In this document: positions 24,471 through 42,600 of the stretch, piece after piece
Position numbering within the stretch: the first letter of the stretch is position 1
How the letters are laid out: the number at the start of each line of letters is the position of its first letter
Assembly: GCA_016932735.1 (NCBI GenBank)
Contig: JAFGCI010000004.1
Location: 124,711-188,710 of the forward strand
DNA length: 64,000 nucleotides
Direction of reading: 5' to 3'
From: Candidatus Aenigmatarchaeota archaeon
GTDB lineage: Archaea > Aenigmatarchaeota > Aenigmatarchaeia > QMZP01 > QMZT01
Notes under the pieces: model-generated
What the model was told of the DNA's origin: nothing
Seen by the model: the letters and a program-made list of their open reading frames with translations, nothing else
The model's database searches: none
Program-made: the position numbers and the translations under genes

Positions 24471-25070
24471 ATGAAAAGAAAAGACAGGAAGGGAGCTTTC
24501 CAGTTAAGTCTTGGTTTTATAATCGGGCTGATTTTTGCGGTGATACTGCTTACCTTGTCAATATCATGGATACAAGGCACATTTGTCAGTATGGAAGGGC
24601 TTACAACAGATCTGACGGGAAACGCGAAGGATACTCTTTCAAAGACTTTTGAACAGACGAAAACCAATTTTGACGTGTCCCCAAGCTATTTTGAACTTGC
24701 TCCAGGAGACGGTCTTAAATTCTCTGCAGGAGTAAAAAACGATCATAAAGACGGCAACACACATACCTTTGTCATAAGAGCCTTCCCCGGAACTGCCGAA
24801 TCGATAATAGTTGATGGGTGGAGCTGTGATGACTTTGAAACATGCACAGACCTTCAGGAAGAGATGGCATCATGGATTACATACATAAAAGCAGCTGATA
24901 ATGTCCCCGGCAACGAGAAAATGATGAGGGATATCACAATAAAATTCCCAAACAACGTCAGGAAAGGCGATTACATGTTCAGGGTAATAGCATGCATTGA
25001 CAAGTCGCATACTGAATGTGAAGCCGGTAACTGGGGCTCGGCCAAGACAATAACATTAAGAGTTAAGTAA
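24471..25070 (+). CDS. Pilin-like protein with a class III (prepilin-type) signal peptide
   Basis: N-terminus MKRKDRKG-AFQLSLGFIIGLIFAVILL: a basic n-region ending in Gly, then a hydrophobic helix, as in FlaK/PibD substrates. Beta-rich C-terminal domain with 4 Cys. Confidence 0.5.
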   Translation: MKRKDRKGAFQLSLGFIIGLIFAVILLTLSISWIQGTFVSMEGLTTDLTGNAKDTLSKTFEQTKTNFDVSPSYFELAPGDGLKFSAGVKNDHKDGNTHTFVIRAFPGTAESIIVDGWSCDDFETCTDLQEEMASWITYIKAADNVPGNEKMMRDITIKFPNNVRKGDYMFRVIACIDKSHTECEAGNWGSAKTITLRVK

Positions 25071-25123
25071 CTCTTACTTTTTTTATTCTTTTTATTTGAC
25101 TGACCACCTAATTAATAATAGGT

Positions 25124-25591
25124 GTGATTATGAATGTAAATTTGATTTTCGCCATTATTTTCGCCATAATAGTGATGATTGTTGTAATCTTTTTCGCTGC
25201 CGGCCAATTCAGCGATTTGTTTGAAATCCAGAATCAGGCTACATTCTATAATCAGGTCACAGAATTCGACAAGACCGTTAACAGAGTAGCTGATATGTCT
25301 ATGGGAAGCACACAGCAATTTGAGTTCAATATGCCCTCTCAGATAAGTAAGGTGTGTTTTATTGACAGGAACAACCCGGAATCCAACCCGCCGGGGAACT
25401 GGGAAACCACTAATATAATAGAGGCGATGATAACAGATAACGATTATAACCTTTTCATCTATGATGAAAAGAAGGGTATACCTGAAGGAAAGAAAATAAA
25501 TTATCTTATACCAAGAGAGAATTTCTGCATAAGCAGTTCGAAGACCCTTTGGATTGAAAATAAAGGCAGGTATGTAACGATAACAGAATAG
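25124..25591 (+). CDS. Pilin-like / membrane-anchored hypothetical protein
   Basis: N-terminal single hydrophobic helix NLIFAIIFAIIVMIVVIFFAAGQF, then a soluble domain. Same orientation and tight spacing with neighbours. Confidence 0.4.
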   Translation: MIMNVNLIFAIIFAIIVMIVVIFFAAGQFSDLFEIQNQATFYNQVTEFDKTVNRVADMSMGSTQQFEFNMPSQISKVCFIDRNNPESNPPGNWETTNIIEAMITDNDYNLFIYDEKKGIPEGKKINYLIPRENFCISSSKTLWIENKGRYVTITE

Positions 25592-25604
25592 AAACGGTGT
25601 TAAT

Positions 25605-26657
25605 ATGGATGCCTTTGGAGTATTCAAAATCGTTCTAGGATTGGTAATTTCAGCTTTTATCCTTATAGCGGTCCTGAATTTTGCAGGGTCTTATATGGAT
25701 ATAAACGCCTCAAAAAAACAGGTTTCAGATTTAAAGGCTTTTGAAAGGAGCGTTGGAGATGCATATGTTAATGGCATTCCTTCAAACTACTCCTTCGACA
25801 ATGAAGCCTTTTCGGCCATGAAAATTTATAATCCCCCGCTTCTTGTAACAGAATTCACAAACATAGACTTTGGTTTTGTACCCTTTTTCTTCAAAAGCGG
25901 GAGGGCAGTTTCAATCAGCAGAATGACCGAAGACACCGGTTGGTGGAGATTCGATTATATAGTATCGTTGCCCAAAACCAGGATTGTCTTTATACCGGTC
26001 AAAGACTCCTCAGATGTAGAAGAGACAGTTAAATTGATCTCTTCAGCATTACCGGATACAGAGAACGTGGAACCTAACATACTGTTCGGTTTCGGATGTG
26101 AAGACGTTTCTTATTTTATTCTGGAAAAATGGACGAGGGACAAGTTCATCAAGGATATAATACCTTATATGAAGACAATGGTAGATTTTGAAGACAACTG
26201 TATAGGGAGCACGGGGGCAGATGAAACAATAATATACATTTCTGATGAAATGACAGAATTCGAAAAAGGAATTCTAGTAGTCACTTCAGGTCCTTATTGG
26301 GGCCATATATACACGAATACATCAGGAGTTCTCAGAAATTATACATACAAAGACGGGATGGATATAATGGCCTTTTCGCTGGGCGGACCGGATTTCTACA
26401 TTTATAAGAATGATATATACCTGAAACAGCTCAGGGCGGCGGCAAAACTCAAAATGGATGAAACCGGATTGCTGGGAGCCAGAGCAACAAAACACGATTG
26501 CACTGCTCTATATTCAGTATTTTCAGGAATTCTGCAGCAGATATACGATTCTTCAGGTTCCGAATATAACGATGATATTAACGCTATAATGCTGGCCGAA
26601 AATCTCAGGCGGTCTATAGATTTCTATAAGATTCTGGAGGAATCGGGATGCGCATAG
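25605..26657 (+). CDS. Pilin-like / membrane-anchored hypothetical protein (350 aa)
   Basis: N-terminus MDAFGVFKIVLGLVISAFILIAVLNFAGS (single TM), then a large extracytoplasmic domain. Stop overlaps the next gene's start. Confidence 0.4.
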   Translation: MDAFGVFKIVLGLVISAFILIAVLNFAGSYMDINASKKQVSDLKAFERSVGDAYVNGIPSNYSFDNEAFSAMKIYNPPLLVTEFTNIDFGFVPFFFKSGRAVSISRMTEDTGWWRFDYIVSLPKTRIVFIPVKDSSDVEETVKLISSALPDTENVEPNILFGFGCEDVSYFILEKWTRDKFIKDIIPYMKTMVDFEDNCIGSTGADETIIYISDEMTEFEKGILVVTSGPYWGHIYTNTSGVLRNYTYKDGMDIMAFSLGGPDFYIYKNDIYLKQLRAAAKLKMDETGLLGARATKHDCTALYSVFSGILQQIYDSSGSEYNDDINAIMLAENLRRSIDFYKILEESGCA

Positions 26658-27139
26658 GACAGGCCCATATGATGGAGTATATACTTCTGACCGTGTTCAT
26701 AATAATACTAATGGTAGCTTTCATGATAATGATGACGGTTTTTCAGATAGGAGGAGTCCGCTCAGAGGGAGCTGAACATGTATACAGGCAATCGATAACC
26801 ACAACGAGGTTCATTGTCAACAGCCCATATTTCAATAATCCGAGATTCTCCGACGGGTCGGTTTTTGACGATTCCAAACTATCGGTTGCTGATTGTGAAG
26901 AACTGAGAGAAGTGATAGGTGAAGGCTGGTTTGCTTTTGTCGTTATACCGGGAGCCCTTCAAGAGACACTCTGTGATGAATTCAATTACCCAGAGTGCAA
27001 CAAGTGGATAATATGCGATAAGGCAGATGTTAGGAAAGAAACATGCGTTCATGAAGTTCCTGTGAATATTTACAGGAAGATGGACGATACGATTGATATC
27101 GGAATATTAACGGTGGGTTTGTATGGCAAATGCACATAA
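26648..27139 (+). CDS. Pilin-like / membrane-anchored hypothetical protein
   Basis: N-terminus MRIGQAHMMEYILLTVFIIILMVAFMIMMTVFQ. A Gly-Gln-Ala cut site is possible. Cys-rich C-terminal part. Overlapping start and stop with both neighbours. Confidence 0.4.
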   Translation: MRIGQAHMMEYILLTVFIIILMVAFMIMMTVFQIGGVRSEGAEHVYRQSITTTRFIVNSPYFNNPRFSDGSVFDDSKLSVADCEELREVIGEGWFAFVVIPGALQETLCDEFNYPECNKWIICDKADVRKETCVHEVPVNIYRKMDDTIDIGILTVGLYGKCT

Positions 27140-27659
27140 TCAAAATCTAAACATGTCCCATTCAAGAAGCATGGGATCTTCCAGAACCAAAGGGCAGATG
27201 AGCATGATGGTGTTTGCTTTAGGTGTAGTTTTCTTTATAATGTTAGGCATATTTCTTTTTACTTCAAACATAAAATCAAAAGACACCGATTATGTCAATA
27301 TGTACGTTCATAACCTGCTCTTGTCCACGATGAGAACGAGTACAGGTTATGGGCATCCATGCATCTCAGTCTCTGACACCATTTCATGTGCGTATCTGAC
27401 ACCGAACAGGTTGTGCGGAACAGAGAAATGCTCTGATATAGTACAAAGAGTAACAGAAAGCATCATAGAAAGGGCAATTAAACCGAATTATGGTTATTTT
27501 ATTATAGTGGAGCCGGAAAACTGGGATATTGTCGGTGGGGAGAGAATAACCATGGGAGACCCTGACACTGAAAGCAAGAGACCACATTATGTCGCGAATG
27601 AAAAGATACTTGCCTACGGGAGCAACCTGAGAATAGAACTGATAATTACGACCGGCTAA
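27123..27659 (+). CDS. Pilin-like protein with a class III signal peptide
   Basis: N-terminus ...SRTKGQ-MSMMVFALGVVFFIMLGIFLFTS: a basic n-region ending in KGQ followed by a hydrophobic helix. Confidence 0.5.
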   Translation: MANAHNQNLNMSHSRSMGSSRTKGQMSMMVFALGVVFFIMLGIFLFTSNIKSKDTDYVNMYVHNLLLSTMRTSTGYGHPCISVSDTISCAYLTPNRLCGTEKCSDIVQRVTESIIERAIKPNYGYFIIVEPENWDIVGGERITMGDPDTESKRPHYVANEKILAYGSNLRIELIITTG

Positions 27660-27691: not shown

Positions 27692-28972
27692 ATGGGAAAA
27701 AAGGTTTCTATACTCAATTACGGATGCACTGCTAACCATAGCCATGGAGAAATAATAGCCGGCACCCTGAAAGAACACGGTTTTATTGTTGTAGGAGAAC
27801 CAAAAGAGTCAGAAGTAATTATAATTAACAGCTGTATAGTCAAGTCTGTGACAGAGAATAGAATTAAGTCCAAAATAATAGAACTAACAAGAAAACATCC
27901 ACAGAAGCTCATTATACTCACGGGATGCGGAGCCGACGCTGAATACGGGACTTTCCGTAAAATAAATAAAAACATGATATTTGTTTCTTCGCACCACGTT
28001 AATGATATCATTGAAGCAATTGAAGAAAAGAAAGATTTTCTGGGTATCAGAAAAGAAGACAAACTACTGAAACCGAAAAAAAGGAAAAATGAGATAGTGA
28101 ATATAGTGGAAATATCACAGGGATGCCTCGGCAATTGCACGTTCTGTATAACAAAGAATGCCCGCGGAAAGCTGGAATCATATGATTCTGATAAAATCGT
28201 CAGAGAAATAGAAAAATCACTGAATGAAGGCTGCAAAGAGATATGGCTGACGTCACAGGACTGCGGTTGCTATGGTCTTGATACCAAAGAAAACCTATGC
28301 ACACTTCTGGAAAAAATAGGTAAAATAGAAGGAAATTTCAGGGTCAGAATCGGAATGTCAAATCCACAGTTCATCAGAAAGTTCCCTGAAGAATTATCAC
28401 GAATTTTAAAAGATGATAAATTCTTCAAATTTCTTCATATACCGGTTCAGTCCGGTTCTGATAAAATATTAAGGCTAATGAAAAGAGGCCACACCGTAGG
28501 CGATTTCAAAAAAATAATAAATGCCATGAGAATAAACATTCCAGATATTACAATATCTACTGATATCATTGTGGGATTTCCTGAAGAGACAGAAGCCGAT
28601 TTCAAAGAATCAGTGAAGCTTCTTCGGGACGCAAATCCGGATATAATCAACATATCTAAATTCGGAGCAAGGCCGGGAACAGAGGCAAAAACAATGAAAC
28701 AAATCGATTCAAAAAAGATAAAGGAAAGGACAGTTCTGTTGGGAGAAGTTGCTGAAAAAATAAAGAAAGAAAAAAACAAATACCATATAGGCAAGGCATA
28801 TACAATACTTATTGATGAACACGGCAAAAGAAAGAACCAGATGATAGGCCGTAGCGAGAATTATAAGCCTGTTATCATTGAAACCGAAGATGAACTGATG
28901 GGTAGATTTGTTAATGTAAAAATAAAGGAAGCAAAAGAGACTCACCTTCTCGGGGAGATTATATCGGAATGA
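27692..28972 (+). CDS. Radical-SAM methylthiotransferase, MiaB/RimO family (archaeal e-MtaB-like, t6A37 methylthiotransferase)
   Basis: 426 aa. N-terminal MTTase domain with a Cys triad (NYGCTANH...NSCIV...TGCGA), radical SAM CxxxCxxC (CLGNCTFC), C-terminal TRAM domain. Confidence 0.8.
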   Translation: MGKKVSILNYGCTANHSHGEIIAGTLKEHGFIVVGEPKESEVIIINSCIVKSVTENRIKSKIIELTRKHPQKLIILTGCGADAEYGTFRKINKNMIFVSSHHVNDIIEAIEEKKDFLGIRKEDKLLKPKKRKNEIVNIVEISQGCLGNCTFCITKNARGKLESYDSDKIVREIEKSLNEGCKEIWLTSQDCGCYGLDTKENLCTLLEKIGKIEGNFRVRIGMSNPQFIRKFPEELSRILKDDKFFKFLHIPVQSGSDKILRLMKRGHTVGDFKKIINAMRINIPDITISTDIIVGFPEETEADFKESVKLLRDANPDIINISKFGARPGTEAKTMKQIDSKKIKERTVLLGEVAEKIKKEKNKYHIGKAYTILIDEHGKRKNQMIGRSENYKPVIIETEDELMGRFVNVKIKEAKETHLLGEIISE

Positions 28973-29372
28973 AACCCGCGAGCAATTCTATTATAGTCGG
29001 TATAACAAGAAGGCTCAGTACAAATCCGATAACACCTATTATGATCGCGTGCATCATGTGGACATCCTTGAAGAATAGTTTTATACCCAGAATCCATACA
29101 ATGAGCGGAAAAATTATACCGATTAGCGGTATGAAAGCAATATATCCATATATCAGGCCGGAGAATATCGGCATGTTAATGATATTGATTAGCAGCGCCA
29201 GCATAAACGCATGAGTCGGAGCTATGTCCTCATCGGGCCCTCTTGCAATTATTTTTGTCAGCACTATTATTACAATGCCCATAACTATTGTGGATAAAAT
29301 AATATTTACAGCCATTCCTATGGGGTCACCGAAGTTGAGGCCACCGGTAACTGCATCAAGAATATCTGTCAT
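28959..29372 (-). CDS. Small hypothetical membrane protein (about 4 TM)
   Basis: 137 aa and very hydrophobic. Its 3' end overlaps the 3' end of the MTTase gene (convergent). Confidence 0.35.
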   Translation of the reverse strand: MTDILDAVTGGLNFGDPIGMAVNIILSTIVMGIVIIVLTKIIARGPDEDIAPTHAFMLALLINIINMPIFSGLIYGYIAFIPLIGIIFPLIVWILGIKLFFKDVHMMHAIIIGVIGFVLSLLVIPTIIELLAGFIPI

Positions 29373-29411: not shown

Positions 29412-30845
29412 TTAAAGTGGAAGCATCTCACTGTATTTTTCCATATATGTAGTCATTTCAATTATCCTGTTCTCAAGAAGCTCTTTTGTTTTGGCCTCAA
29501 TATTAAGCCTCAGGACAGGGTCATTTGCAGAAGGCCTTAGGTTGAATCTCCAGTCATGATAATCCACTGATAATGTATCAAGACGGTTTATTTCATATTT
29601 TCCGTATTTTTCCTGCGTGAAATGTTCTTCAACTTTATTCACTACAAAGCTGAATTTTTCATCGTGCGTATCTCCCACAGCTTTCGTGACGTCGAAATTC
29701 ATTTCGAGGCTGTCGTGATACGAATGCGTTTCTTCAAATATCTCAGAAAATTTCTTATTATATTTAGACATCATTTCCATTATCTGCAGGATTGGTATAA
29801 GGGCGTTATCCACCATGAAATTATCAAAATTATAGAATATGTGACCCGATTTTTCCCCACCAAAAAGCGCTTTCCTTTTATTCATCTCGTTCTTGAAATA
29901 TGCATGACCACATCTGACCCTTACGGGATTTCCGCCGTATTTTTCAGCCATATTCCGGATAAACCATTCCGCGCGGGACTCATGAATTATATCTCCTTTA
30001 CCTTTTTTCTTTAACATCTCTGCCGCAAGAACACCAACTATAAACTCACCGTTTATGTAGTTCCCATTCTCATCTATGAAAATTGTCCTGTCGGCATCTC
30101 CATCAAAAGCGACTCCGAAGTCAGCATTTCCGGTCTTTATCGTTTCAACGATCTGCTTCCTGTTTGATGCCAGGAATGGATTCGGGTCGTGCACGGGGAA
30201 ATGACCGTCGGGATCGAAATTAAGTGGCATAATGTCACAGTTTACATTTTTGAATATTTTGTTAATTAAAAGGCCGCCAACACCGTTGCCGGCATCAAAA
30301 ACAACTTTGAATGGCTTTATTTTCTTCAGATCTATGAAAGAAAGGCAGGAATTAATGAAATCGTTTGTTATATCTTTCTGAGTTACTTTACCCTTCTTTT
30401 CAGAAACTTTTCTGAACTTTCCATTATCATAAATTTTCTTGACTTTCTCAAGTCCAAAATTCATGGCAATTGGATGCGCGTTCTTTCCTACTATCTTCAT
30501 TCCGTTAAAGTCCTTGGGCATATGCGATGCCGTTATCTGGACACCTGCATCATAACCGTAGTATCCGACCGAAAAATAAAGGAAATCGGTCCCATTCATA
30601 CCTAGATCGATTACATTAACACCGAGCTCGGTGAAGCCTCTTATAAGACCATCTGCTATTTCCTTTCCACTGCGCCTGGAATCCCTTGATATTGCTACAT
30701 TTCTACATTTCAGGTAGGTAGTAAGAGCCTTGGCAACCCTGCAAGCGACTTCACTATTAATATCTTCCGGGTAGAATCCGCGCATATCGTATTCCCTGAA
30801 AAGTCTCATATGCCTTTCTTTCATAAGCTCTTCCATGTAACCCAC
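29412..30845 (-). CDS. Alpha-D-phosphohexomutase (phosphoglucosamine/phosphomannomutase/phosphoglucomutase family)
   Basis: 477 aa. Active-site Ser loop ITASHMP (cf. TASHNP), Mg-binding FDGDADR, sugar-binding GGEKSGH. By context it could act as the GlmM-equivalent. Confidence 0.8.
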   Translation of the reverse strand: MGYMEELMKERHMRLFREYDMRGFYPEDINSEVACRVAKALTTYLKCRNVAISRDSRRSGKEIADGLIRGFTELGVNVIDLGMNGTDFLYFSVGYYGYDAGVQITASHMPKDFNGMKIVGKNAHPIAMNFGLEKVKKIYDNGKFRKVSEKKGKVTQKDITNDFINSCLSFIDLKKIKPFKVVFDAGNGVGGLLINKIFKNVNCDIMPLNFDPDGHFPVHDPNPFLASNRKQIVETIKTGNADFGVAFDGDADRTIFIDENGNYINGEFIVGVLAAEMLKKKGKGDIIHESRAEWFIRNMAEKYGGNPVRVRCGHAYFKNEMNKRKALFGGEKSGHIFYNFDNFMVDNALIPILQIMEMMSKYNKKFSEIFEETHSYHDSLEMNFDVTKAVGDTHDEKFSFVVNKVEEHFTQEKYGKYEINRLDTLSVDYHDWRFNLRPSANDPVLRLNIEAKTKELLENRIIEMTTYMEKYSEMLPL

Positions 30846-30854
30846 ATCATCACC

Positions 30855-31556
30855 TCAGTCAAGATAATTTCCTTCCAGTATGAATTTTTCAGTTTTTTCC
30901 AGATCTTCAAGTGTGCTCATTTCCTTCCAGTATCCCCCGACTTCCAGAACTTTAACTTTCTTCTCTTCAGCGAGAAGAGATATCGCATCTGTAAGCTCAA
31001 TTTCACCCCTAGTTGATTTTCCGACCTTCAGAAGTTTATCAAATACTTCGGGAGTGAATTTGTATAATCCTGTATTGACAAGGTCTGAGACGAAATCCTT
31101 CGGTTTCTCAACTATCTTTACAAGAAAACCACTTTTCTTTATTATTACACCATACCTTTCAGGATGCTCATCCCTTATACCGAACATATAATTGTATTTA
31201 TCCCGCATGTCGAGCTTGCTTATATCTTTGTTTGAATAGAGATTGTCACCATAAATAACAACGAAATTATCCTTCCCTACCCAGTTCTTTGCGAGCATAA
31301 CTGCATGGCCTGTTCCCAGTTGCTCTTCCTGAAAAATAAGTTTGTATTTTATTTTCTCCTTTTTTAAGAAATCCTCAATTTTCTCTTTCTTATAGCCTAC
31401 TATGAATCCGAAATCATCAAAACCGGCTTTCATAAGGTTCTCGATTACATAGTGAAGGAAAGGCTTGCCTGCGACATCTATAAGAACCTTCGGTTTATCC
31501 AGTGTAAGAGGCCTCATCCGGATTCCCTTTCCGGCAGCCAGAATCAATGCTTTCAT
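30855..31556 (-). CDS. Sugar-1-phosphate nucleotidyltransferase (GlmU N-terminal / RmlA-like)
   Basis: MKALILAAGKGIRMRPLTLDKPKVLIDVAGKPFLHYVIENL matches the G-x-G-T-R-x(n)-PK signature of NTP-transferase. 233 aa, so no LbH acetyltransferase domain is present. Confidence 0.8.
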   Translation of the reverse strand: MKALILAAGKGIRMRPLTLDKPKVLIDVAGKPFLHYVIENLMKAGFDDFGFIVGYKKEKIEDFLKKEKIKYKLIFQEEQLGTGHAVMLAKNWVGKDNFVVIYGDNLYSNKDISKLDMRDKYNYMFGIRDEHPERYGVIIKKSGFLVKIVEKPKDFVSDLVNTGLYKFTPEVFDKLLKVGKSTRGEIELTDAISLLAEEKKVKVLEVGGYWKEMSTLEDLEKTEKFILEGNYLD

Positions 31557-31560
31557 ATAA

Positions 31561-33231
31561 TTACCTGTTTACACCGTTAATTAAATTTATCAGCACTCCG
31601 GCTATTTTTTCAGGATCGTGTCTCATTATATCAGGATCATGTTTTCCCCTGTCGGGTCTTTCCTTCATTTCCCATAAAATATCTTCCTTTATCTTTTTAA
31701 AATACGATTCTTCAATATCATCAGTAACAATTTCCAGCCCCTCCATCTTATATTTTTCAATAGATTTCTTATCCGGAGATTTTTTGTTAACTATTATATA
31801 ATCAAGAGTTTTACCCATATATTTTTCAAGGTCTTTTATGTGGTCCGAGAGCAGGTAGCCTTCTGTCTGTCCTTTCTGGGTTACAAGATTTGAAATATAA
31901 ATTATTTTCGCCCGTGTTTTCTCCAGAGATTCTTTCATGCCTTTCATAAGAAGATTTGTTATTATACTCGTGTAGAGGCTACCCGGCCCTATTACAACCA
32001 GATCGGCCGATTCGATTTCCTTCAGGCATTCAGGCAAAGCAGATGCTTCAGGCTCAAGGAAGGCTATTTTTATTCTTGCCTTGTCCTCCCTTTTGTAAAT
32101 CTCATAATCTTTCTTGAAGACAGTTCCGTCTTCCAGTTCAGCGCATATATGGCAGTCTTCCAAAGTAACTGGAAGAACCCTTCCTTTTATATGAAGAATC
32201 TCTCCAGCCTCTTTAACAGCCTCTTCAAAACTTCCTGTAATCTTGGTCAGCGCCGCTATGAAAAGATTACCAAAACTCATGTCACCAAGTCTTCCTTTGC
32301 CCTCGAATCTGTATCTGAGCAGGTTCTGGACGTGCTCCGATCTTTCTGAAAGGGCTATCAGGCAATTCTTGATATCTGCCGGCGGGAGAATTTTCAATTC
32401 CTCTCGTATTATCCCGGAACTTCTGCCTGCATCTGTTACAGTCACGATAGCTGTTATATCGTTAGTGTATTTTTTCAGACCTTTCAGGATTCTGGATAGG
32501 CCCGTGCCTCCGCCTATACAGACTATCTTGGGTTCTCTTTCAGATTCGAGAATTTTAATTACTAAAGGCAGTTCTGTTATCCTTTTTATTTTATAGTCAG
32601 GCTCTTCGAACTTGTCTTTTGGCTTTACATCACTATATTTTCCAAATAGCATCTGGACGGTTTTCATTCTCAATTTGTTGCCTATTAATATTTCAGAATT
32701 TATCCTGTCCCCGACAACAACAAACTCAGAAGCACAGAATCCAGATTTTTTCAGAACTCTCTCAAAGTCGTTTACTTTATCTGGATCCTTTTCTATATCG
32801 TTTATTACTATTTCATCAAACTTGTCTTTCAATCCAAGAGCTTCTATCTTCTTCATTTGTCTTATATGGAGACCCGCCGTAATGAGTATCAGCCTGTATT
32901 TTTTTCTTAATTTTATGAGGGTCTCACTGGCGCCTGGAAATGATTCTATTTTACCAACGTCATCGTTATTATAAGCTTTTAATGCATTCTCAACAAAATT
33001 CTTTTCCTTTACTCCGAATTCCTCGGCCATCTTATTGAACACATCGCATCTTGGACCGAATTTTTCCAGATATTCTATCTGTTTTTTATAAGCCCGATTC
33101 TCTGACAGAGGAAGACCGTCAGCTATCATGGATTTTGCGGCTCTCTTCATTGCCTGTTTTCTCAATACTCCGCAATCATATAACGTGTCGTCGAGATCAA
33201 ATATTATGGCCTTTATTGACATAAGTTTCAC
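31561..33231 (-). CDS. Fusion protein: HAD-superfamily hydrolase (N-terminal) plus YvcK/CofD-like (UPF0052, gluconeogenesis-factor family) domain
   Basis: N-terminal HAD motif I IIFDLDDTLYD with later motifs (VVGDRINSEI). C-terminal IVCIGGGTGLSRILKGLKKYTNDITAIVTVTDAGRSSG, typical of the CofD/YvcK family. Confidence 0.6.
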   Translation of the reverse strand: MKLMSIKAIIFDLDDTLYDCGVLRKQAMKRAAKSMIADGLPLSENRAYKKQIEYLEKFGPRCDVFNKMAEEFGVKEKNFVENALKAYNNDDVGKIESFPGASETLIKLRKKYRLILITAGLHIRQMKKIEALGLKDKFDEIVINDIEKDPDKVNDFERVLKKSGFCASEFVVVGDRINSEILIGNKLRMKTVQMLFGKYSDVKPKDKFEEPDYKIKRITELPLVIKILESEREPKIVCIGGGTGLSRILKGLKKYTNDITAIVTVTDAGRSSGIIREELKILPPADIKNCLIALSERSEHVQNLLRYRFEGKGRLGDMSFGNLFIAALTKITGSFEEAVKEAGEILHIKGRVLPVTLEDCHICAELEDGTVFKKDYEIYKREDKARIKIAFLEPEASALPECLKEIESADLVVIGPGSLYTSIITNLLMKGMKESLEKTRAKIIYISNLVTQKGQTEGYLLSDHIKDLEKYMGKTLDYIIVNKKSPDKKSIEKYKMEGLEIVTDDIEESYFKKIKEDILWEMKERPDRGKHDPDIMRHDPEKIAGVLINLINGVNR

Positions 33232-33708
33232 CTAGTCAAAGAATATACTCATTAACCACTCGCCTTTTCCTTTATAGTAATGGTCTTTCAATGTAACTTC
33301 ATATGAGAAACCTAATACCTTGTAGAATTCCTGAGCTCTCATGTTATCTTCATGTGTGAGGAGATATAGCTTCCTCAGAGTGTATCCTTTCTCTTTATAG
33401 TATTTCTTTATATCCTCAAACAGGAATTCAAAAAGAAATTTTGAAACGCCTTTACCTCTGAATTCGGGTAGCAAGCCAATCCTATCTAGTTCTGCAAGCC
33501 CGTGTTTTGGGAGTCCATGTATAATCCATGAAGCAATTCCAATAATACCAGTTTCAGAAAATGAAACAACGAAATTGTGACCTTTCTCTAATTCACTCAA
33601 GAACGTTTCTTTTCCTTCATCAACATCTTTAATATTGTAGCATTCTTTTAACACGAAACCTATTTCTTCAGCGTCACTTTCTTTGGCTCTTCTGTATTTT
33701 ATATTCAT
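33232..33708 (-). CDS. GNAT-family N-acetyltransferase
   Basis: 158 aa. Acetyl-CoA binding motif A region LLPEFRGKGVSKFLFEFL (Q/R-x-x-G-x-G/A). Confidence 0.7.
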   Translation of the reverse strand: MNIKYRRAKESDAEEIGFVLKECYNIKDVDEGKETFLSELEKGHNFVVSFSETGIIGIASWIIHGLPKHGLAELDRIGLLPEFRGKGVSKFLFEFLFEDIKKYYKEKGYTLRKLYLLTHEDNMRAQEFYKVLGFSYEVTLKDHYYKGKGEWLMSIFFD

Positions 33709-35504
33709 TCGACAGTCACCGATTTTGCGAGATTTTTTGGCTTGTCGGGATCCAATCCCTTAAGGTCTGCAATATGATAAGCCAATAACTGCAGTGGGAT
33801 TGTATTTATTATTGGCATCAGCTCTTCCCTACATTTTGGCACATAAATAACATGGTCGGAAATCTTCTTAATTTCCTCGTCACCTTCGGTTGCTATTGTT
33901 ATTATTACACCATTCCTGGCTTTTATCTCCTGCATGTTGCTCATTATTTTTTTGTAAGACTCCCCATTCTTGTTGGCTATAAAGACGACGGGCATCTTTT
34001 CATCTACCAGCGCGATTGGGCCATGTTTCATCTCGGCGGCGGGATAGCCTTCAGCGTGTATATATGAGATTTCCTTAAGTTTTAATGCACCTTCAAGCGC
34101 TACAGGAAAGTTTATTCCCCTACCAAGATAAAGTGCATTCGGATGATTATAGAAGTATTCAGCTACATTTCTGATACCAGCACTCGTTTCCAGAACACTG
34201 CTTATTTTTTCCGGAATACTTTTTAGACTTTTTAACAGTTCTTCATCAACATTTTTCCCGAGTTCCTGGTTTATTGATAATGCCAGAAGAATAAGAGATA
34301 TTATCTGGCTTGTGAAAGCTTTTGTAGATGCAACACCTATCTCAGGACCCGCATGTATATAGATGCCGTTTTCGGATTCTCTGGCTATTGTGGAGCCTAC
34401 GACATTGACTATTCCAAGCGTTTTTACTCCCTTTTTTTTTGCTTCATGGAGGGCTGCCAAGGTATCAGCAGTCTCCCCCGACTGGCTTATAACTATTACT
34501 AAATCGTCTTTGCCTATTAACGGGTCTCTGTACCTGAACTCTGATGCGTAATCGACTTCAACAGGGATATTGCACATCTTTTCGATAAGATATTTTCCAA
34601 CAATGGCAGCATGCCAACTCGTGCCGCATGCGGTTATAACAACCCTTCTCATATTCTGCAGGAAATCTTTACTGAGACCAGTGCTTAATTTTATTGAATC
34701 GTTTTTTATCCTTCCTAACATAGTGTTCTGCAGAGATTCTGGCTGTTCCATTATCTCCTTTAACATAAAATGTTTGAAACCTTTCTTTTCAATTTCCTTT
34801 ATATCCCATTCTATCTTTTCTATTTCATTTTCAATTTTTCTGAAAGTTCTGCCCATGATTCTGACGTTATCTTTTGTAACAGAGGCCATCTGGCCGTCCT
34901 TAAGATAAATTATATCCTTTGTCTTCTGAACTATCGCGGAAACATCTGATGCGATTATATTACCACTTTCAGATACACCTATTACTACCGGACTACCATT
35001 CCTTGCTGCCACTATCTTTTCTTCAGACATCTGTATTGCAAGAATACCGTATGTTCCTTCTAACAAGCCTACGGCTTTATAAACAGCCTTTTCAAGATCG
35101 CCTTTGTAGTACGTTTCTATAAGATGGGCTATGACCTCAGAATCCGTATCGGACCGAAATTTGTGGCCGTGTTTCTCCAGCATTTTCTTCAGCCAAGAAA
35201 AATTCTCTATTATCCCGTTATGGACTATTGCAATATCCTTTTTATTATCAAAATGCGGATGCGCATTTTTCTCGGTGACATTACCATGCGTTGCCCATCT
35301 AGTGTGACCTATTCCCATTTTACCCGGAATGGATTTTGAACCATCCTCGCTTATTTTACCAACATGTTTTCTCAGCTCTATTTTATGATTTTCGCAGACA
35401 GCTATGCCATATGAGTCGTAGCCTCTGTATTCCATTTTTCTGAGGCCGTCCATGATGATAGGATAGCATTCTTCAATTCCTATATAACCAATAATACCGC
35501 ACAT
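33705..35504 (-). CDS. glmS: Glutamine--fructose-6-phosphate aminotransferase (isomerising)
   Basis: 599 aa. N-terminal MCGIIGYIG (Ntn glutaminase Cys1), two SIS domains, C-terminal ...LAKSVTVE. Confidence 0.9.
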   Translation of the reverse strand: MCGIIGYIGIEECYPIIMDGLRKMEYRGYDSYGIAVCENHKIELRKHVGKISEDGSKSIPGKMGIGHTRWATHGNVTEKNAHPHFDNKKDIAIVHNGIIENFSWLKKMLEKHGHKFRSDTDSEVIAHLIETYYKGDLEKAVYKAVGLLEGTYGILAIQMSEEKIVAARNGSPVVIGVSESGNIIASDVSAIVQKTKDIIYLKDGQMASVTKDNVRIMGRTFRKIENEIEKIEWDIKEIEKKGFKHFMLKEIMEQPESLQNTMLGRIKNDSIKLSTGLSKDFLQNMRRVVITACGTSWHAAIVGKYLIEKMCNIPVEVDYASEFRYRDPLIGKDDLVIVISQSGETADTLAALHEAKKKGVKTLGIVNVVGSTIARESENGIYIHAGPEIGVASTKAFTSQIISLILLALSINQELGKNVDEELLKSLKSIPEKISSVLETSAGIRNVAEYFYNHPNALYLGRGINFPVALEGALKLKEISYIHAEGYPAAEMKHGPIALVDEKMPVVFIANKNGESYKKIMSNMQEIKARNGVIITIATEGDEEIKKISDHVIYVPKCREELMPIINTIPLQLLAYHIADLKGLDPDKPKNLAKSVTVE

Positions 35505-35664
35505 ATTGACACCGCAATTTAGAGATTATAAGAGATTATATGCCTTCTTTAAAAGGCTTTCTCGAGGAAAAAATCATAATTGAACGTCTTTTTGGCCTTT
35601 CCCGAAGAAAGCTATTTAAATATTATTATAAATTATTTTTTAATATTATGAATAAGGTTATAAT

Positions 35665-36591
35665 ATGTCTGGGTATTTTATAATTGAGTCAGGAAGGAAG
35701 AACAGAACATGCGAAATCATGATTGTTGATAAGCCTGAAAAACTGGAAGCAATGTCCAATATCATAGCATGGAAGCTTCTCGAATTAATGAAGACTCCTC
35801 AGTGTCCTATTGACCTTGCAAGAGCGCTGAAAATTCACGAGCAGAAAGTCTATTATCACATAAGAAAGCTGAGAGATGCAGGGATCATTGAGGAGGTCAG
35901 GACAGAAAGTCGGCATGGAACCGTGGCAAGGTTCTATGAAATAAAATCCAGTGCTATTGGCACGTTTTTGCCAGGAGCAAAAATGGAAAAGATAACCTTT
36001 GCTGCTCCCCGATACAACAGGAACATGGAACCTTTCATTGTTGAAGGGAGATCGAACTTTACGATAGTGGTCGGCTCACCGGAGCCACACGGACCATTCC
36101 GAGCCCGCGCCTCGGATGCGATGTGTGCAATCGATTTAGGTTTGTTCTTGGGTTCCTTCACAACGGGAATTGAGGAAGCCAACTACAAACTGGACGTCGA
36201 AATCAGAGAAAGGGATTTGAAACAGAATTTGATAATAATAGGCGGTCCTGTTGCCAACATGATTACGAAAAAAATAAACGAGAAGATGCCCATAAAAATA
36301 ATGCTTAAAATGGACAGGAGTATATTCTCAGCACTTTCAAAAAAATACTACGATAACGATGCAAGCGGTTATATCATTGTAACTGATAATCCATGGGCAA
36401 AGGGAAAAAGGATAATGGTTCTTGCCGGAAAAAGATTTATCGGTACGCGGGCAGCAGTGCTTTTTCTGATAAAAAAATTCGACAAAATATTCGAGGGCAA
36501 CAGATGGGACAGCAATATACTGGCACGCGTTGTCAGAGGATACGATATGGACGGTGACGGGATAATAGACACCGCGGAGCTCATTGAATAA
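35665..36591 (+). CDS. Winged-helix (ArsR/TrmB-like) transcriptional regulator with an uncharacterised C-terminal domain
   Basis: N-terminal HTH (SNIIAWKLLELMKTPQCPIDLARALKIHEQKVYYHIRKLRDAGIIEE). C-terminal ~200 aa without recognisable motifs. Divergent from glmS and immediately upstream of the giant surface-protein gene. Confidence 0.5.
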   Translation: MSGYFIIESGRKNRTCEIMIVDKPEKLEAMSNIIAWKLLELMKTPQCPIDLARALKIHEQKVYYHIRKLRDAGIIEEVRTESRHGTVARFYEIKSSAIGTFLPGAKMEKITFAAPRYNRNMEPFIVEGRSNFTIVVGSPEPHGPFRARASDAMCAIDLGLFLGSFTTGIEEANYKLDVEIRERDLKQNLIIIGGPVANMITKKINEKMPIKIMLKMDRSIFSALSKKYYDNDASGYIIVTDNPWAKGKRIMVLAGKRFIGTRAAVLFLIKKFDKIFEGNRWDSNILARVVRGYDMDGDGIIDTAELIE

Positions 36592-36693: not shown

Positions 36694-39600
36694 GTGAGCA
36701 GCACTTATAAGTCACAAGGTACAGCTTCAAGTCTATTTATAGTCTTCTCGGTAATATTGTTCTCGCTCACAACACTATTCGTATTAACAGTCTTTGCTTC
36801 TTCTGAGTTCATTGTTTATACGAATAAGGGTACTTATAATCCTGAAGAGCCTATAGTCATAGTCGTAGAAGGTCCCCCCTTCACCGAATTCTATCTGACA
36901 GTTCTCAATAAGAACATGAAGCAGGTATTTCCAATCGGAGACCCTTTATGGAAACTGAACAGCCATGGAATGCACAATTTTTATCTGGAGGGATTTTCAG
37001 AAAGCGGAATGTACACTGCTAAAGTACTTTCCGGAGAAAAGAATACCCAGTCAACTTTTTATGTGGCCTCTTCCCAGACCGAATTAACAGAAGAACCGGC
37101 TGAACAGGAAACACCTGCTTCTGAAAGCAACATCCAGATACAATCAAAAACTGAAGAAAAAAAGGTTATTGTCGCATCTAGGGAAGAGGTAAAAGAGATT
37201 GAAATCTCTGAAAAGCCAAAATATGGACTTGGATGGGAGGAAGTCTGTAAGGAAGGAAAATGCACAAAGACCATAAGCTCATATTTAAGCTCGATGCAGG
37301 ACAGTGAAGGAGAGTACAGGCCGTTCAACGAACTTGTAAAGCTTAATAAGAAGAGTTCAGGCTCTTACCAGTATCTTGAGATAGACTGGAATTCAAATAA
37401 AGTCGGAATGGACCCTTATGCTGTAATAAACCGCCAGAAGGTGGATGACCTTCCCCCATCAATGAGCTTTAACACGATAACAAAAGAAATCGCGGGCCAG
37501 TATAAATGGTCCTACGAATTCAGGAATATACATAACCTTGAAGCAATTGGAATAAAAATAAATTCGAACGGAGGTATTCTAGAAGTCGTGGATGATGACA
37601 CTATAATCATTGACGGAATTGAGTTAGACTTCTCCGACCTTTACAATTCATGCGACGAATATGGCATCTGCACAGACTCGGGAATTATGGTATCGATAGA
37701 CCAGATAGATTTGAACACAGCCGACGTAAGAATAACCAATTTTGAAGGAACTATAGTGCTCCTGGATCCGACAATAAAGTTGCAGACGGCTGACACCCAG
37801 AATCTCGATGACTCCCATGTCAGAAGCAACTCGGCTACCTCGACTTATGGAACAGACACCGCCTTAAGGCTGAGGTCGAGGTCCAACTTCAAATACAGGT
37901 CATATGTGAAATTCAATATCTCTTCAATACCCTCCGCAGCCACGATACAGGATTCTAAGCTTTGCCTTTATTTGTACAGCGACGACTCGACGCCTTCTGC
38001 AGGGGCGTACCACGTTTACGATTACACATGGACAGAGGAAGCGCTCACATGGAACAACCAGCCATGCGGAACCAACTTTGATAGCACCACAAACTGCAAC
38101 ATTACAGCCGAGAACACCCAGACTACAAGCGGAACCGGCTGGATTTGCTGGAATATCACAAAGATGGTTGCAACCGAGAAATATCAGGGAGATGAGAACG
38201 TTTCTGTGGCTATTAAAACAACAGAAACCGACGGCAATGTAGGAGAGGATGCTTTTTATTCGAAGGAGTACACAACTGATACGAGCCTTCGACCTTACCT
38301 TAACATAACCTATGAAATGCCTCCTGCAATTACTTCAGTCGCAAACTCGTCAACAACTGATATATCAACACTGATAACATGGACAACCGATAAGAACGCC
38401 AACTCGTCGGTAGTTTACGGGAACACTACATCACTGCTCGACGGCTCAAATTCATCTGCAACATTTACAACTGCTCATTCAATTCAGCTTACAAACCTGA
38501 ATCCTCAGACGCTTTATTATTACAACGTGACCAGCTGTGGTTTGGGAACCAAGTGCAATACAACAGGCCCTTACAATTTCACAACTTCGGAGTCTCCTGA
38601 TGCAACCAATCCGATAGCTTCGCTGGGAACGAATCCGGTCGCCAATTACAACGATACTGACGGTTCGGTCACATTCGACCTGAAATGCTCCGACAATAGG
38701 GGTGTTGGTACACTCCAGCTCTGGAGCGACTGGACAGGCTCATGGTCAGCCAATCAGACCAACTCATCCCCGGTAAACAACTCGGTCTGGTCGGTCCTTG
38801 TCGAAGGAATCCCCGAAGGCATATGGTCATGGGGAGCCCACTGCAACGACACTTCAGGAAACGAAGGTTGGACAGACTTAAATAGGACAATAACCATTGA
38901 TACGAAGCCGCCACAGATAACATCAGTTACCAATTCATCAACAACATTTGACCATACCGATATAGTATGGACGACCAACGAGCCTGCAAACTCTTCAATA
39001 ATATACGGAAAGATCGAATTTATGGAAGATGGTTATGAGTCATCCACTTCTCTGATTTATTCACATTCACTATACATTGAGAACCTTGACTCCGAAACGC
39101 TGTATTATTACAATGTGACTTCATGCGATTTTATAGGAAACTGCAATACTACGGGACCATATACATTCAAAACGGCTAGAATGCCTGAAGCGGGGATACC
39201 TTTGGTCTATCTTGGAGGCGAACCCCAAAATTACTTCAATTCATCCTCAGGAAATGTAGAATTTGAAATCAAATGCATTGATGACGGCGAGATAGATTCG
39301 CTCCAGCTGTGGAGCGACTGGAGCGGTTCATGGTCTGGAAATGAAACCAACTCAACATCAATAAATGACACATGGTGGAGCTTTTCTGTCAGCGGAATTC
39401 CTGAAGGTACATGGATTTGGGGGGCATCGTGCAGCGACAAAGAAGAGAATACGGGATGGTCGGCACTTAACAGGACGCTTACAATTGATCTGGCACATCC
39501 CGAGATTTCTTTGCAAGACCCTGAGCCATTTTATAACACAACTTCACAGGACGTGAATTTTATTTTCAGGGCGACAGATAATATGGCAACTGTCCTGTCA

Positions 39601-42600
39601 TGCTCTCTTTACATAAACGGATCTTTTTCCGCGGTTAACTCGTCTGTAATAAACGGCTCATTGACAACATTTGAGAAAACGGGTCTTTCCGAAGGACTCT
39701 CTCAGGACTGGGCAATAAACTGCACGGATTATGCAGGAAATTCATACCAGGCTCCGGAAAGGCACTTTTCAATTGATGCAACGCCCCCCATCACTTCTTT
39801 TGAGAATATGCCTATCGATAATTACAATTATTCTTCCCGTTCTCTCTTATTCGAGCTTTACTGCATAGACAATACAGCTCCTCACACCCTTCAGCTATGG
39901 AGCGACTGGTCAGGCTCATGGTCAGCCAATCAGACCAACTCATCCCCGGTAAACAACTCGGTCTGGTCGGTCCTTGTTGAAGGAATCCCTGAAGGCATAT
40001 GGTCATGGGGAGCCTACTGCAAAGACACTCTCGGTAATAGCGATTGGACTGATGTCAACAGAACCCTTACAATTGATATTACAAAGCCTCAAATTACAGA
40101 TGTAACAAATGAATCGATCACTCATACATCGACAATAATATCATGGAATACTGACGAGCCTGCAAATTCCAGTATTTCATACGGAAGAACGGAAGACCTT
40201 AATGAAGGAATTTCATATTCATCAAATTTTGTGTTTTTTCATCAGGCAAGCCTTTCAAGTCTTTTATGCGATACGCTCTATTACTATAATATAACGTCCT
40301 GCGACTTTGCAGGAAACTGCGACACGACAGGGCCGTACAGCTTTAGGACAAAGCAATATCAGCCTCTTCTAGTGAATACGGTTACGGCATGCGCAGCACA
40401 TGATTCCAAGGCGAGAGGAACATTTGACATAGCATGCGACGCTCCCGACGGCTCTTACCTTGAATCAAATGACGGGAACTACGAAGACCACACGTATACA
40501 AAATCGCTTTATGCCGGAGTGAGGATAGAATCAGTAGATGCAGAAGAGACCAAGTGCTATGGAATTGAGTCTGTTTATATATGTTACGAATGGTGGGGCA
40601 CCAATACTCCTCAGGACTGCGATATATCTGTTGATGCTGATGGTGGCGCAAGCTATACAGTCGCGTCATCAACATGCCCGGGAACGATAGCAGATCCTGG
40701 ACCCCAATGCCTTGATGTGACATCACTTGAAACATGGACATGCCAGAATTTTTTTGGCCCGACCGGAACAAGGGCAGTTGCCAAGTCTGAATTCAGAAGG
40801 ACGAGTGCGGGCGGAGGCAGCACTGAAATTGCATATTGGGACATATTATATTTTAACGTGAGCTATCTTGCAGATATAAAGCCTCCCGAAGTTGTTCTCA
40901 ATAATCCTGCTGACAATTTTAATTCAAGCTCCGGAGATATATACTTTAATTGCACAGGTTTTGATGAAGTTAATCTTACCAGCATAAACCTTTATGGAAG
41001 CTGGGGTCCGGGATGGCATCTCAATGCAACAAATGACAGCGTAATTAACAACACATTAACAACATTCAATGTGAAAGGAATAAAAGAAGGGACATATGAA
41101 TGGAACTGCTATGCATGTGGTAACTTTACAAATTGCCAATTTTACTCGGTTAATTATACAATCACAGTCGATACGACAGCTCCAACAGTCTCACTCTCCT
41201 CACCAATTCCGGACTTCAACACGACCTCAGAATCAATAGACTTCATATTCACGGCCACCGACAACCTCGCATCAGCCCTTTCCTGCGACCTTATAATCAA
41301 CGGCTCAGTTGCCGGAACGAACTCATCAACACTAAACGGCACCCTGACAACATTCATCCAATCATCTTTATCAGAAGGCTTAGACCAGACATGGGCAGTC
41401 AACTGTTCCGACTCCGCGCAAAACAGCAATCAGCCATCAGCAAGGACATTCAGCATCGACCGCACAGGACCATCCATCGCCTTCCCATACTACGCCAACG
41501 CGACAAAGAAAACATCATCCCAGACACTGACCATAAACCTCTCCGTGACAGACACAGGACTAGGACCTGACATATGCCTTGTCCATATTGAAGGGCAGTC
41601 AGCAAACCAGACCATCCCATATGTCAGCGGATGGTGCAACGGGACGATCTCACTGACCAATGCGAATGAAGGCAACTCAACAATCTATGCATACGCAAAC
41701 GACACATTGAACAACTTCGGCCTCAACAGTTCCTATGTAATATACATAGACGACTCTCCGCCAATAATCTCATCAGTAACAAACGCATCCACGACCAACG
41801 AAACAACATTAATCACATGGTCGACCAACGAGCCAGCCAACTCTTCTGTAATCTACGGGACCGACAACACGACCCTGTCAGACGGCTCTAACTCATCCGA
41901 AACCTTAACAAGCTCACACTCATTAGCCCTTAAAGACCTGACACAGGACACCATGTATTACTACAATGTGACATCCTGCGACTCACTAAACAACTGCATA
42001 ACAGAAGGTCCATACAGTTTCAAAACGGCTTTATCAGAGGACGATTTTGATTCTCCGGTAATAAGCCTTATTCTTCCGTTAAACAATTCCGGGGACAATG
42101 ACGGAAACGTCTCTTTTTCATACAACGTCACAGACGACTCTAGCATCTTGAATTGTTCGTTGATTTTGAACGGGCAGATAAACCAGACGAATTCGACTGT
42201 CCAGAAAACAATTACCCAGTATTTCAATGTTACCAGCCTTCCGGCCGGTCATTACAACTGGAGCATAAGATGCACTGACGATTCGCCTAATGAAAACACA
42301 CAGACCACAGCATCAAGAAATATTGACATGATAATTTATTCGGCCCCGGTGGAAAACTTTACAATGACAGACTTGTCACAGGTTGATACTTCAAACATCA
42401 CGGATTTCTATATAGAGATAGAAAATAAGACGAGACTTATATTCAACGAGACTCTGGATTTATCAGGCGGATTAGATTTGTCATCAATAATAACAATCCA
42501 GAGCAATTTCATAGATGTCGATACAGCCTCTGAGCCAAGGCTCAATAAATCTGCAGAAATAACTTTCCATAATCTTTCCTATATCTTTAATCCGGTCATA

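Follow-up and report, generated by a model that had tools for sequence, protein, structure and literature searches.

The stretch of DNA analysed here, a 64-kb portion of a metagenome-assembled genome of Candidatus Aenigmarchaeota (DPANN archaea) and referred to below at its full length as the window, contains at positions 29412-35504 a compact group of genes whose products point to UDP-N-acetylglucosamine (UDP-GlcNAc) synthesis. An initial inspection made without database searches (hereafter the sequence-only reading) had recognised five same-strand genes here, and all five open reading frames (ORFs) indeed lie exactly within these limits, tightly packed and all on the minus strand. From glmS to the mutase the intergenic gaps are -4, 0, 4 and 9 nt, spacings which suggest co-transcription of the five genes. 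The features of the cluster, including the two halves of its one fusion protein, are as follows.

33705..35504, minus strand: glmS, glutamine--fructose-6-phosphate transaminase (599 aa, TIGR01135)
33232..33708, minus strand: GNAT acetyltransferase (158 aa, Pfam Acetyltransf_1/7)
31561..33231, minus strand: fusion of HAD and CofD/YvcK domains (556 aa; PF13419/PF00702 at aa 6-192, PF01933 at aa 236-510)
32542..33231, minus strand: HAD-IA phosphatase domain of the fusion (aa 1-230; HAD_2/Hydrolase matches)
31561..32541, minus strand: YvcK/GlmR-type (CofD-like) domain of the fusion (aa 231-556; TIGR01826)
30855..31556, minus strand: stand-alone sugar-1-phosphate nucleotidylyltransferase (233 aa, ST0452/archaeal-GlmU N-terminal type, without the left-handed beta-helix, LbH, domain)
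29412..30845, minus strand: alpha-D-phosphohexomutase, PMM/PGM/GlmM-like (477 aa, four PGM_PMM domains)

The glmS product matches TIGR01135 with 806.9 bits (cutoff 418) and NF001484 with 820.5 bits. It is composed of a GATase (GATase-II) and two SIS domains and begins with MCG, the N-terminal Cys being present. Family membership makes its identity as GlmS, and hence its predicted production of glucosamine 6-phosphate (GlcN-6-P), secure. Between the start of the GNAT gene and the stop codon of glmS there is an overlap of 4 nt. Its product belongs to Acetyltransf_1 (Pfam) and has RGKG at residues 84-87 as its acetyl-CoA motif (R/Q-x-x-G-x-G/A), while the AlphaFold2 model (pLDDT 95.7) has the canonical GNAT fold, with the order beta1-alpha1-alpha2-beta2-4-alpha3-beta5-alpha4-beta6-7.

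The relationships of the GNAT were assessed through sequence, profile and structure comparisons. Against the PDB, phmmer and a 27-sequence profile gave best matches to SpeG/diamine acetyltransferases (5e-11), followed by the archaeal N-alpha-acetyltransferase SSO0209 (around 1e-9) and then by RimI; Foldseek with the model returned the same neighbours (SpeG, RimI and N-alpha-acetyltransferases). The protein had been described as 'GNA1-type', a description that these nearest relatives (SpeG/diamine, N-alpha- and RimI-type acetyltransferases) do not bear out. Comparison with the archaeal GNA1 homologue of a Diapherotrites locus (L002, below) yielded a pairwise E value of 0.039 and, in hhalign, a probability of 80% only, indicative of generic GNAT similarity; as far as sequence can tell, the two proteins are related by their shared fold alone. 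Identification of the window GNAT as GNA1 was consequently rejected, on the phmmer, profile and Foldseek searches of the PDB and on the pairwise and hhalign comparisons with the archaeal GNA1. A separate GNA1-like match, of 45 bits in locus L085, proved to be an unrelated generic GNAT of 143 aa.

The sequence-only reading had proposed distinguishing GNA1-like from Rim-like ancestry, taking best matches to acetyltransferases unrelated to sugar metabolism as evidence against a role in the pathway, and the result does fall on the SpeG/RimI/N-alpha side. This argument is a weak one because the GNA1 of Apicomplexa, an independently evolved GNAT whose GlcN-6-P N-acetyltransferase activity was shown biochemically, had earlier been described as a spermidine/spermine acetyltransferase (SSAT; PMC5838249). 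Given that precedent, SpeG-like best matches do not exclude a role for the window GNAT as a glucosamine-phosphate acetyltransferase.

Genomic context nevertheless links the GNAT firmly to GlmS. It was surveyed in 80 loci from GTDB species representatives (L015-L094) centred on members of the GNAT family, with up to 8 kb of flanking sequence on each side. The family members, of around 155 aa, share 51-77% identity across Aenigm-, Woese- and Nanoarchaeota. Upstream of the GNAT gene, on the same strand and within 2.3 kb, glmS was present in 64 of the 80 loci, the two being directly adjacent in 32 of those 64. The flanks of the pair vary, with 26 families seen downstream of the GNAT and 20 upstream of glmS, and because these flanking families are so diverse the surroundings appear to turn over while the glmS-GNAT pair is kept. 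The pair is even found among bacterial genes on a Latescibacterota contig of about 5.8 Mb and 56% GC (L072:6400-8471; also L093), where the GNAT, 52% identical to that of the window, comes right after a glmS-like gene and beside RNase R and PurF; this suggests that the GNAT, or the glmS-GNAT pair, has moved across domains. Genes for the nucleotidyltransferase and/or the mutase adjoin the pair in L001 (with the order swapped), L009, L064, L071 and L073, and no LbH domain is present in any of the 80 loci, flanks included.

Two kinds of protein were observed interposed between glmS and the GNAT gene. One, in a single Woesearchaeota clade, is a PEMT/ICMT-like membrane methyltransferase of about 150 aa (PF04191, 55 bits; for example L029:7546-8001 and L018:3936-4394). 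The other, of 488-490 aa (L012:5532-6998, L085:6533-8005, L021, L077, L089 and L094), has no Pfam match, but visual inspection picked out two LAGLIDADG-like motifs (YFADGTK and VLEGDGSV), and the gene may be an insertion of a mobile, homing-endonuclease-like kind.

The case that says most is the Diapherotrites locus L002, which has the order glmS-GNAT-HAD/YvcK, its fusion being 47% identical to that of the window. The middle gene, however, encodes a true GNA1 homologue, matching in the PDB the enzymes of T. brucei (3fb3, 1e-18), Arabidopsis (3t90, 9e-16), yeast (1i12, 1e-12) and human (2huz, 5e-10). Non-orthologous GNATs thus fill one and the same slot in L002 and in the window, as would be predicted if they were functionally equivalent. 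An acetylation step carried out by the window GNAT is well supported by genomic context, with either GlcN-6-P or glucosamine 1-phosphate (GlcN-1-P) as its presumed substrate.

The 233-aa nucleotidyltransferase matches TIGR03992 with 218 bits over positions 1-227 of 393, below the cutoff of 292. Its best match in the PDB is to residues 1-214 of S. tokodaii ST0452 (2ggo, E = 1e-40), and the motifs LAAGxGxR, GTG, YGD, EKP and ELTDA are kept. The earlier observation that it has no GlmU acetyltransferase domain is correct: Pfam detects no hexapeptide (Hexapep) domain in the protein, which ends at 233 aa with the next gene 9 nt on. Its closest 120 homologues are likewise short (225-256 aa, save for one 377-aa NUDIX fusion), none has Hexapep, and they come from DPANN genomes with the exception of one Paceibacterota protein. 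Absence of the LbH half is thus characteristic of the lineage and goes along with possession of the GNAT, both genes being found, for example, on the same 302-kb and 400-kb contigs. Nor was an LbH acetyltransferase found in the 64-kb window, whether by tblastn with a Scalindua protein combining nucleotidyltransferase and LbH domains or in Pfam scans that took in essentially every ORF. The mutase retains all four PGM_PMM domains and the loops TASH(105), DGDADR(248), GEKSGH(330) and RPS(437); Xanthomonas PGM is its best PDB match and it is not AGM1-like.

These two enzymes bear on the order of the reactions. In the bacterial/archaeal order, the mutase would produce GlcN-1-P, the GNAT would acetylate this as a non-homologous replacement for the LbH domain of GlmU, and the nucleotidyltransferase would uridylylate the resulting GlcNAc-1-P. 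Such an order would sit well with a nucleotidyltransferase of the ST0452 lineage, whose characterised archaeal enzymes acetylate GlcN-1-P, with a mutase of GlmM/PMM rather than AGM1 character and with a GNAT that is no homologue of GNA1. We nevertheless consider it unlikely, since linkage of the GNAT to glmS, the gene for the enzyme that yields GlcN-6-P, is seen in 64/80 loci compared with 2/80 for the mutase (L064; L071, without PGM), and since the slot in Diapherotrites is filled by a true GNA1, an enzyme specific for GlcN-6-P in eukaryotes.

The third gene encodes the HAD-YvcK fusion. Its YvcK half scores 318.8 bits with TIGR01826 (cutoff 196), as against 47 bits with the F420 cofD model (cutoff 257), and matches B. 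halodurans YvcK over 272 residues (phmmer E = 2e-61). The AlphaFold2 model of the fusion has a pLDDT of 90.7 and a pTM of 0.82. On superposition, its YvcK half agrees closely with 2hzb/2o2z (B. halodurans YvcK, BH3568), at 37-38% identity, a TMt of 0.93-0.94 and an rmsd of 1.5-1.7 Å; for comparison, F420 CofD/FbiA structures yield TMt values of 0.60-0.65. Judged by sequence and model alike, this half is of bona fide GlmR type and not an F420-CofD variant. The motifs GGGTGL, TDxGRSSG and GPGSLYTS are kept in 25 fusion homologues, as are Y494, which aligns with BH3568 Y264, and R537-H538-D539. Y494 and R537 plausibly match the UDP-GlcNAc-binding residues Y265 and R301 of B. subtilis GlmR. Of the predicted uridyltransferase residues of Listeria GlmR, D40 corresponds to the invariant D267 and N198 to N426, which varies hardly at all, whereas D41 corresponds to A268, a position held by Ser in most of the family; two of the three are kept. 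The ADDGG motif of Firmicute GlmR reads TD[A/S]GR in the fusion family.

The HAD half scores 121 bits with TIGR02253, under the cutoff of 169.75. Invariant in the same 25 homologues are FDLDDT (residues 11-16, with D12 and D14), RQxKK (124-128, with K128) and GDRxxSE (174-180, with G174-D175 and E180), and the motif II position, T118, is conserved as T/S. On these patterns of conservation both halves of the fusion look functional. The nearest structures, and nearest neighbours in sequence, are the HAD-IA phosphatases of the TIGR02253 group PH1655 of P. horikoshii and NANP/HDHD4 (N-acylneuraminate-9-phosphatase), from which the window domain differs in scoring below the group cutoff and in being fused to YvcK. 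NANP dephosphorylates an N-acetylated sugar phosphate. The possibility that the HAD half is a beta-phosphoglucomutase-like GlcNAc-phosphate mutase found no support, the neighbours identified by hidden Markov models (HMMs) and by Foldseek all being phosphatases (PH1655, NANP and PGP).

The sequence-only reading had called the fusion unusual, which overstates the matter. Its closest 120 matches (90%-identity clusters) all have the HAD+CofD architecture and include Scalindua/Brocadiia Planctomycetota and one Diapherotrites archaeon; at 50% identity, full-length fusions account for around 25 representative clusters within a set of 1502 CofD/YvcK-like proteins (E <= 1e-30). The fusion is a minority architecture, yet it is recurrent in DPANN archaea, Planctomycetota and others. 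The search for it in other archaea, also proposed at the outset, found it for example in Diapherotrites, L001, L071 and L095, and in every archaeal case seen (the window, L001, L002, L071 and L095) it comes directly after a GNAT gene. Bacterial fusions occur in mixed, unrelated gene contexts. Metagenomes scanned for the fusion yielded for the most part bacterial YvcK in stand-alone form and only about four fusions, and so said little about the context of the fusion. They did show glmU coming after the stand-alone yvcK, in some cases with glmS next, at no fewer than 9 of the 76 metagenomic loci. The full same-strand order of yvcK, glmU (with nucleotidyltransferase and LbH domains) and glmS was observed in L117, L130, L133 and L147 (also L142, L156, L162 and L173), and it ties GlmR to UDP-GlcNAc synthesis at the level of the operon beyond Firmicutes.

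The proposed tie of the YvcK family to UDP-sugars was upheld, GlmR having been linked experimentally to GlmS and UDP-GlcNAc in Firmicutes (PMC7525490, PMC10128056). As long as no UDP-GlcNAc is bound, GlmR of B. subtilis raises GlmS activity about fourfold (PMC7525490), and purified Listeria GlmR synthesises UDP-GlcNAc in vitro (PMC10128056). The window protein shares with Firmicute GlmR its family, its fold and a genomic tie to genes of UDP-GlcNAc synthesis. It differs in being archaeal, in its N-terminal HAD phosphatase and in its position inside a biosynthetic cluster, and the genes annotated around it, both in the window and at the archaeal loci, include neither yvcJ/rapZ nor whiA.

The Listeria result raises the alternative that the fusion is a pair of enzymes and not a regulator, with YvcK as a GlcNAc-1-P uridyltransferase and HAD as a phosphatase/pyrophosphatase (or mutase), so that glmS-GNAT-HAD/YvcK would form a self-contained route. 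The Diapherotrites locus would then be readily understood, comprising glmS-GNA1-HAD/YvcK with no PGM or nucleotidyltransferase gene within 10 kb, and the constant position of archaeal fusions after the GNAT, the invariance of the HAD catalytic motifs and the pTM of the fusion model, which suggests a fixed arrangement of the domains, all speak for it. Set against this are the phosphatase neighbours of the HAD half, with no beta-phosphoglucomutase in either the HMM or the Foldseek lists, the replacement of the Listeria DD pair by D-A or D-S in the fusion family, the unrelated contexts of the bacterial fusions and, in the window itself, the presence of dedicated nucleotidyltransferase and mutase genes. 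We regard the enzyme pair as highly improbable.

The sequence-only reading is upheld in part. Its view of the locus as a UDP-GlcNAc supply module, in which a GNAT replaces the LbH acetyltransferase, stands as the best interpretation, through the linkage to glmS and the presence of GNA1 in the Diapherotrites slot. Put in full, we find it moderately probable that this operon-like cluster encodes a complete de novo UDP-GlcNAc route in a DPANN archaeon, with the GNAT supplying N-acetylation and the HAD-YvcK fusion tuning flux. Gene content, family membership and neighbourhood statistics are observed, and from them we infer all substrate assignments and regulatory roles. GlmS would produce GlcN-6-P; the translationally coupled 158-aa GNAT would then, to judge from its gene neighbourhood, N-acetylate in place of the LbH domain of GlmU, most likely acting on GlcN-6-P and less likely on GlcN-1-P. 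The PMM/PGM-type mutase would shift the phosphate from C6 to C1 and the stand-alone nucleotidyltransferase, clearly of ST0452 type by family, would presumably convert the product to the UDP-sugar. This eukaryote-like order of reactions is one that we infer. The fusion would most likely serve as a UDP-GlcNAc sensor tuning flux, its YvcK half perhaps behaving as Firmicute GlmR does, in stimulating GlmS unless UDP-GlcNAc is bound, or else acting as an accessory uridyltransferase. The catalytically intact, NANP-like HAD half might dephosphorylate an intermediate or by-product, for which GlcNAc-6-P, UMP and pyrophosphate (PPi) are speculative candidates.

So interpreted, the cluster combines elements of several known systems. 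With the eukaryotic hexosamine pathway (GFA1-GNA1-AGM1-UAP1) it has in common a small GNAT following a GlmS-type amidotransferase, the placing of acetyl and uridylyl transfer on separate proteins and, in the equivalent slot of the Diapherotrites relative, a true GNA1 homologue. It differs in that the window GNAT is outside the GNA1 family, the mutase is of PMM/PGM/GlmM type rather than AGM1, and the nucleotidyltransferase corresponds to the N-domain of ST0452/GlmU and not to UAP1. With the GlmS-GlmM-GlmU route, including the bifunctional ST0452 (TIGR03992), it shares a canonical GlmS and a nucleotidyltransferase closest to the N-terminal domain of ST0452, and differs in having a GNAT gene instead of the LbH half. 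The Apicomplexa-specific GNA1 (PMC5838249) offers a precedent for an independently recruited GNAT with GlcN-6-P N-acetyltransferase activity; it belongs to another lineage, and its activity is proven biochemically while that of the window GNAT is deduced from context.

Several observations weigh against the proposed pathway. By both sequence and fold, the closest relatives of the GNAT are polyamine (SpeG), ribosomal-protein and N-alpha acetyltransferases, and GNA1 appears neither among its phmmer matches (E <= 1) nor among the top 60 profile matches or top 50 Foldseek matches. There is no glmS near the GNAT in 16 of the 80 loci, and the PEMT-like methyltransferase and the LAGLIDADG-like protein separate the two genes in 18 and 6 loci, respectively. 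The nucleotidyltransferase scores 192 bits with RmlA-long and 166 bits with AglF, near the 218 bits of archaeal GlmU, and the mutase lies under every equivalog cutoff (Arch_GlmM, TIGR03990, 344.6 bits with a cutoff of 439; PMM/PGM, 337.9 bits). An LbH acetyltransferase could be encoded beyond the 64-kb window. Of the Asp pair exchanged in the catalytic-site mutant of Listeria GlmR, the second member is replaced by Ala or Ser in the fusion family. Finally, the proteins of the cluster are known here from sequence, models and context.

The relatives of the GNAT, the 16 unlinked loci and the ambiguous HMM scores of the nucleotidyltransferase, together with the fact that functionally unrelated genes do share neighbourhoods, could also be accommodated if the GNAT had no part in amino-sugar synthesis. 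It might be a polyamine or protein N-acetyltransferase, perhaps one modifying GlmS or some other protein, retained in a conserved block while acetylation is performed by an enzyme encoded elsewhere; or the nucleotidyltransferase and mutase might form a pair making UDP- or dTDP-glucose. This we judge quite unlikely. Across phyla, and in the genome of a bacterium too, glmS and the GNAT gene stay together as their flanks change, GNA1 occupies the equivalent slot in Diapherotrites, and LbH domains are lacking both from the window and from the 80 GNAT-centred loci. Moreover, the best E values to characterised acetyltransferases reach only about 1e-9 to 1e-11, so that the GNAT is an orthologue of none of these, and the apicomplexan GNA1, as already mentioned, was likewise once described as an SSAT (PMC5838249).

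Beyond the five genes, three further features adjoin the cluster.

35665..36591, plus strand: ArsR-type winged helix-turn-helix (HTH) and S_layer_C protein (308 aa; HTH_20/HTH_5 and S_layer_C; the HTH resembles PH1932)
35505..35664, no strand assigned: divergent promoter region shared by glmS and the HTH gene (160 nt; two TTTCYTCRRGAAAG palindromes and TATA-like boxes)
28959..29372, minus strand: hydrophobic multi-pass membrane protein, possible sixth member of the cluster (137 aa, 39 nt 3' of the mutase gene)

The palindrome TTTCYTCRRGAAAG is present in two exact copies, at 35557-35570 and 35597-35610, both of them inside the divergent promoter region, whereas 0.31 matches would be expected in the whole 64-kb window at up to 1 mismatch. 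A homologue of the HTH/S_layer_C protein is encoded divergently upstream of glmS in 26/80 of the GNAT loci, as well as in L001, L002, L012 and L095, and several DPANN phyla are represented. The protein and the two palindromes are likely to govern transcription of the cluster.

In Woesearchaeota loci, a conserved TATA-like box, AAGGTATATAAA, was observed between the HTH/S_layer_C gene and glmS. About 52 nt 3' of this box comes a hairpin of 11 bp (AAGTGCAYCC...GGRTGCACTT) with a T-run behind it, and in some loci its loop carries insertions of 40-100 nt. These features were seen in L012:3499-3623, L020:1974-2098, L029:5584-5708, L041:5560-5684, L044, L052, L060, L067 and others, all of them loci outside the window. 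A search of seven Woesearchaeota loci found no Rfam match for the region, and covariation is weak; in appearance the hairpin resembles a terminator/attenuator in a leader, or else a small RNA, preceding glmS. Rfam and tRNA searches of the window produced no matches.

At the other end of the cluster, the 137-aa membrane protein has no Pfam or NCBIfam match. It keeps its place downstream of the cluster in two related loci, L001 (214 bits) and L009 (80 bits), and in these, as in the window, a convergent MiaB-like methylthiotransferase gene always comes next. It may be a sixth gene of the cluster. Among the remaining genes of the window are archaeal housekeeping genes, for example those for RtcB, archease, PheRS, CTP synthase and PPDK. 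Elsewhere in the window (24471-27659, plus strand; 1982-3673, minus strand) there are a run of small proteins without Pfam matches, which is syntenic with L001 and in which several members have N-terminal pilin-like hydrophobic segments, and a T2SSE/PilB-type ATPase. Together these may encode an archaeal type IV pilus-like apparatus.

On the far side of the HTH/S_layer_C gene lie two giant genes for secreted or anchored proteins, at 36694-47625 (3643 aa) and 48392-64000+ (more than 5200 aa), with a roughly 2.4-fold enrichment in sequons. The sequon-rich character that had been attributed to them is genuine: the ORF at 36694-47625 contains 173 N-x-S/T sites, compared with 73 +/- 6.5 in composition-matched shuffles, and that starting at 48392 contains 218. 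Pfam matches in these proteins include CBM96, DUF2341, Laminin_G_3, Big_3_3 and purple-acid-phosphatase N-like Fn3 repeats. A Nup98-type S59 autopeptidase domain, unusual in an archaeal surface protein, is located at around aa 3140-3250 of the first. The cluster is not, as had been supposed, directly upstream of these genes; it is divergent from them, with the 160-nt intergenic region and the HTH/S_layer_C gene lying between. The adjacency is kept in only the closest relative checked (L001), being absent from L002 (Diapherotrites), L012 (Woesearchaeota) and the JGI locus L009.

N-glycans and many polymers of the envelope have UDP-GlcNAc as their entry sugar, and its textbook synthesis in prokaryotes depends on the bifunctional GlmU. 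According to a 2026 preprint, GlmU is reduced in some bacteria to its uridyltransferase half, so that they must have an 'unidentified acetyltransferase' (10.64898/2026.06.23.733835). The glmS-linked GNAT family, present in at least 80 species-level DPANN genomes and a Latescibacterota genome, is a concrete candidate for such a replacement of the GlmU acetyltransferase, and the literature searched yielded no description of archaea using a GNA1 or GNAT route. Archaeal homologues have been taken in the GlmR literature as F420 CofD (PMC7525490); in the present analysis a bona fide GlmR/YvcK is encoded within a UDP-GlcNAc cluster of an archaeon, and the intact phosphatase fused to it provides a new handle on the disputed mechanism of GlmR. 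The novelty consists in the non-orthologous displacement of an acetyltransferase and in an archaeal, phosphatase-fused GlmR within a known pathway, rather than in any new kind of system.

A bolder proposal, which we hold to be very doubtful, is that DPANN archaea follow the eukaryote-like order with a third, independently evolved family of GlcN-6-P N-acetyltransferases and also possess a catalytic HAD-GlmR, uniting a NANP-like phosphatase/pyrophosphatase with a uridyltransferase, glmS-GNAT-HAD/GlmR thereby constituting a self-contained and self-regulating route. If this were true, the three-gene route may be shared by other small-genome prokaryotes with a truncated GlmU.

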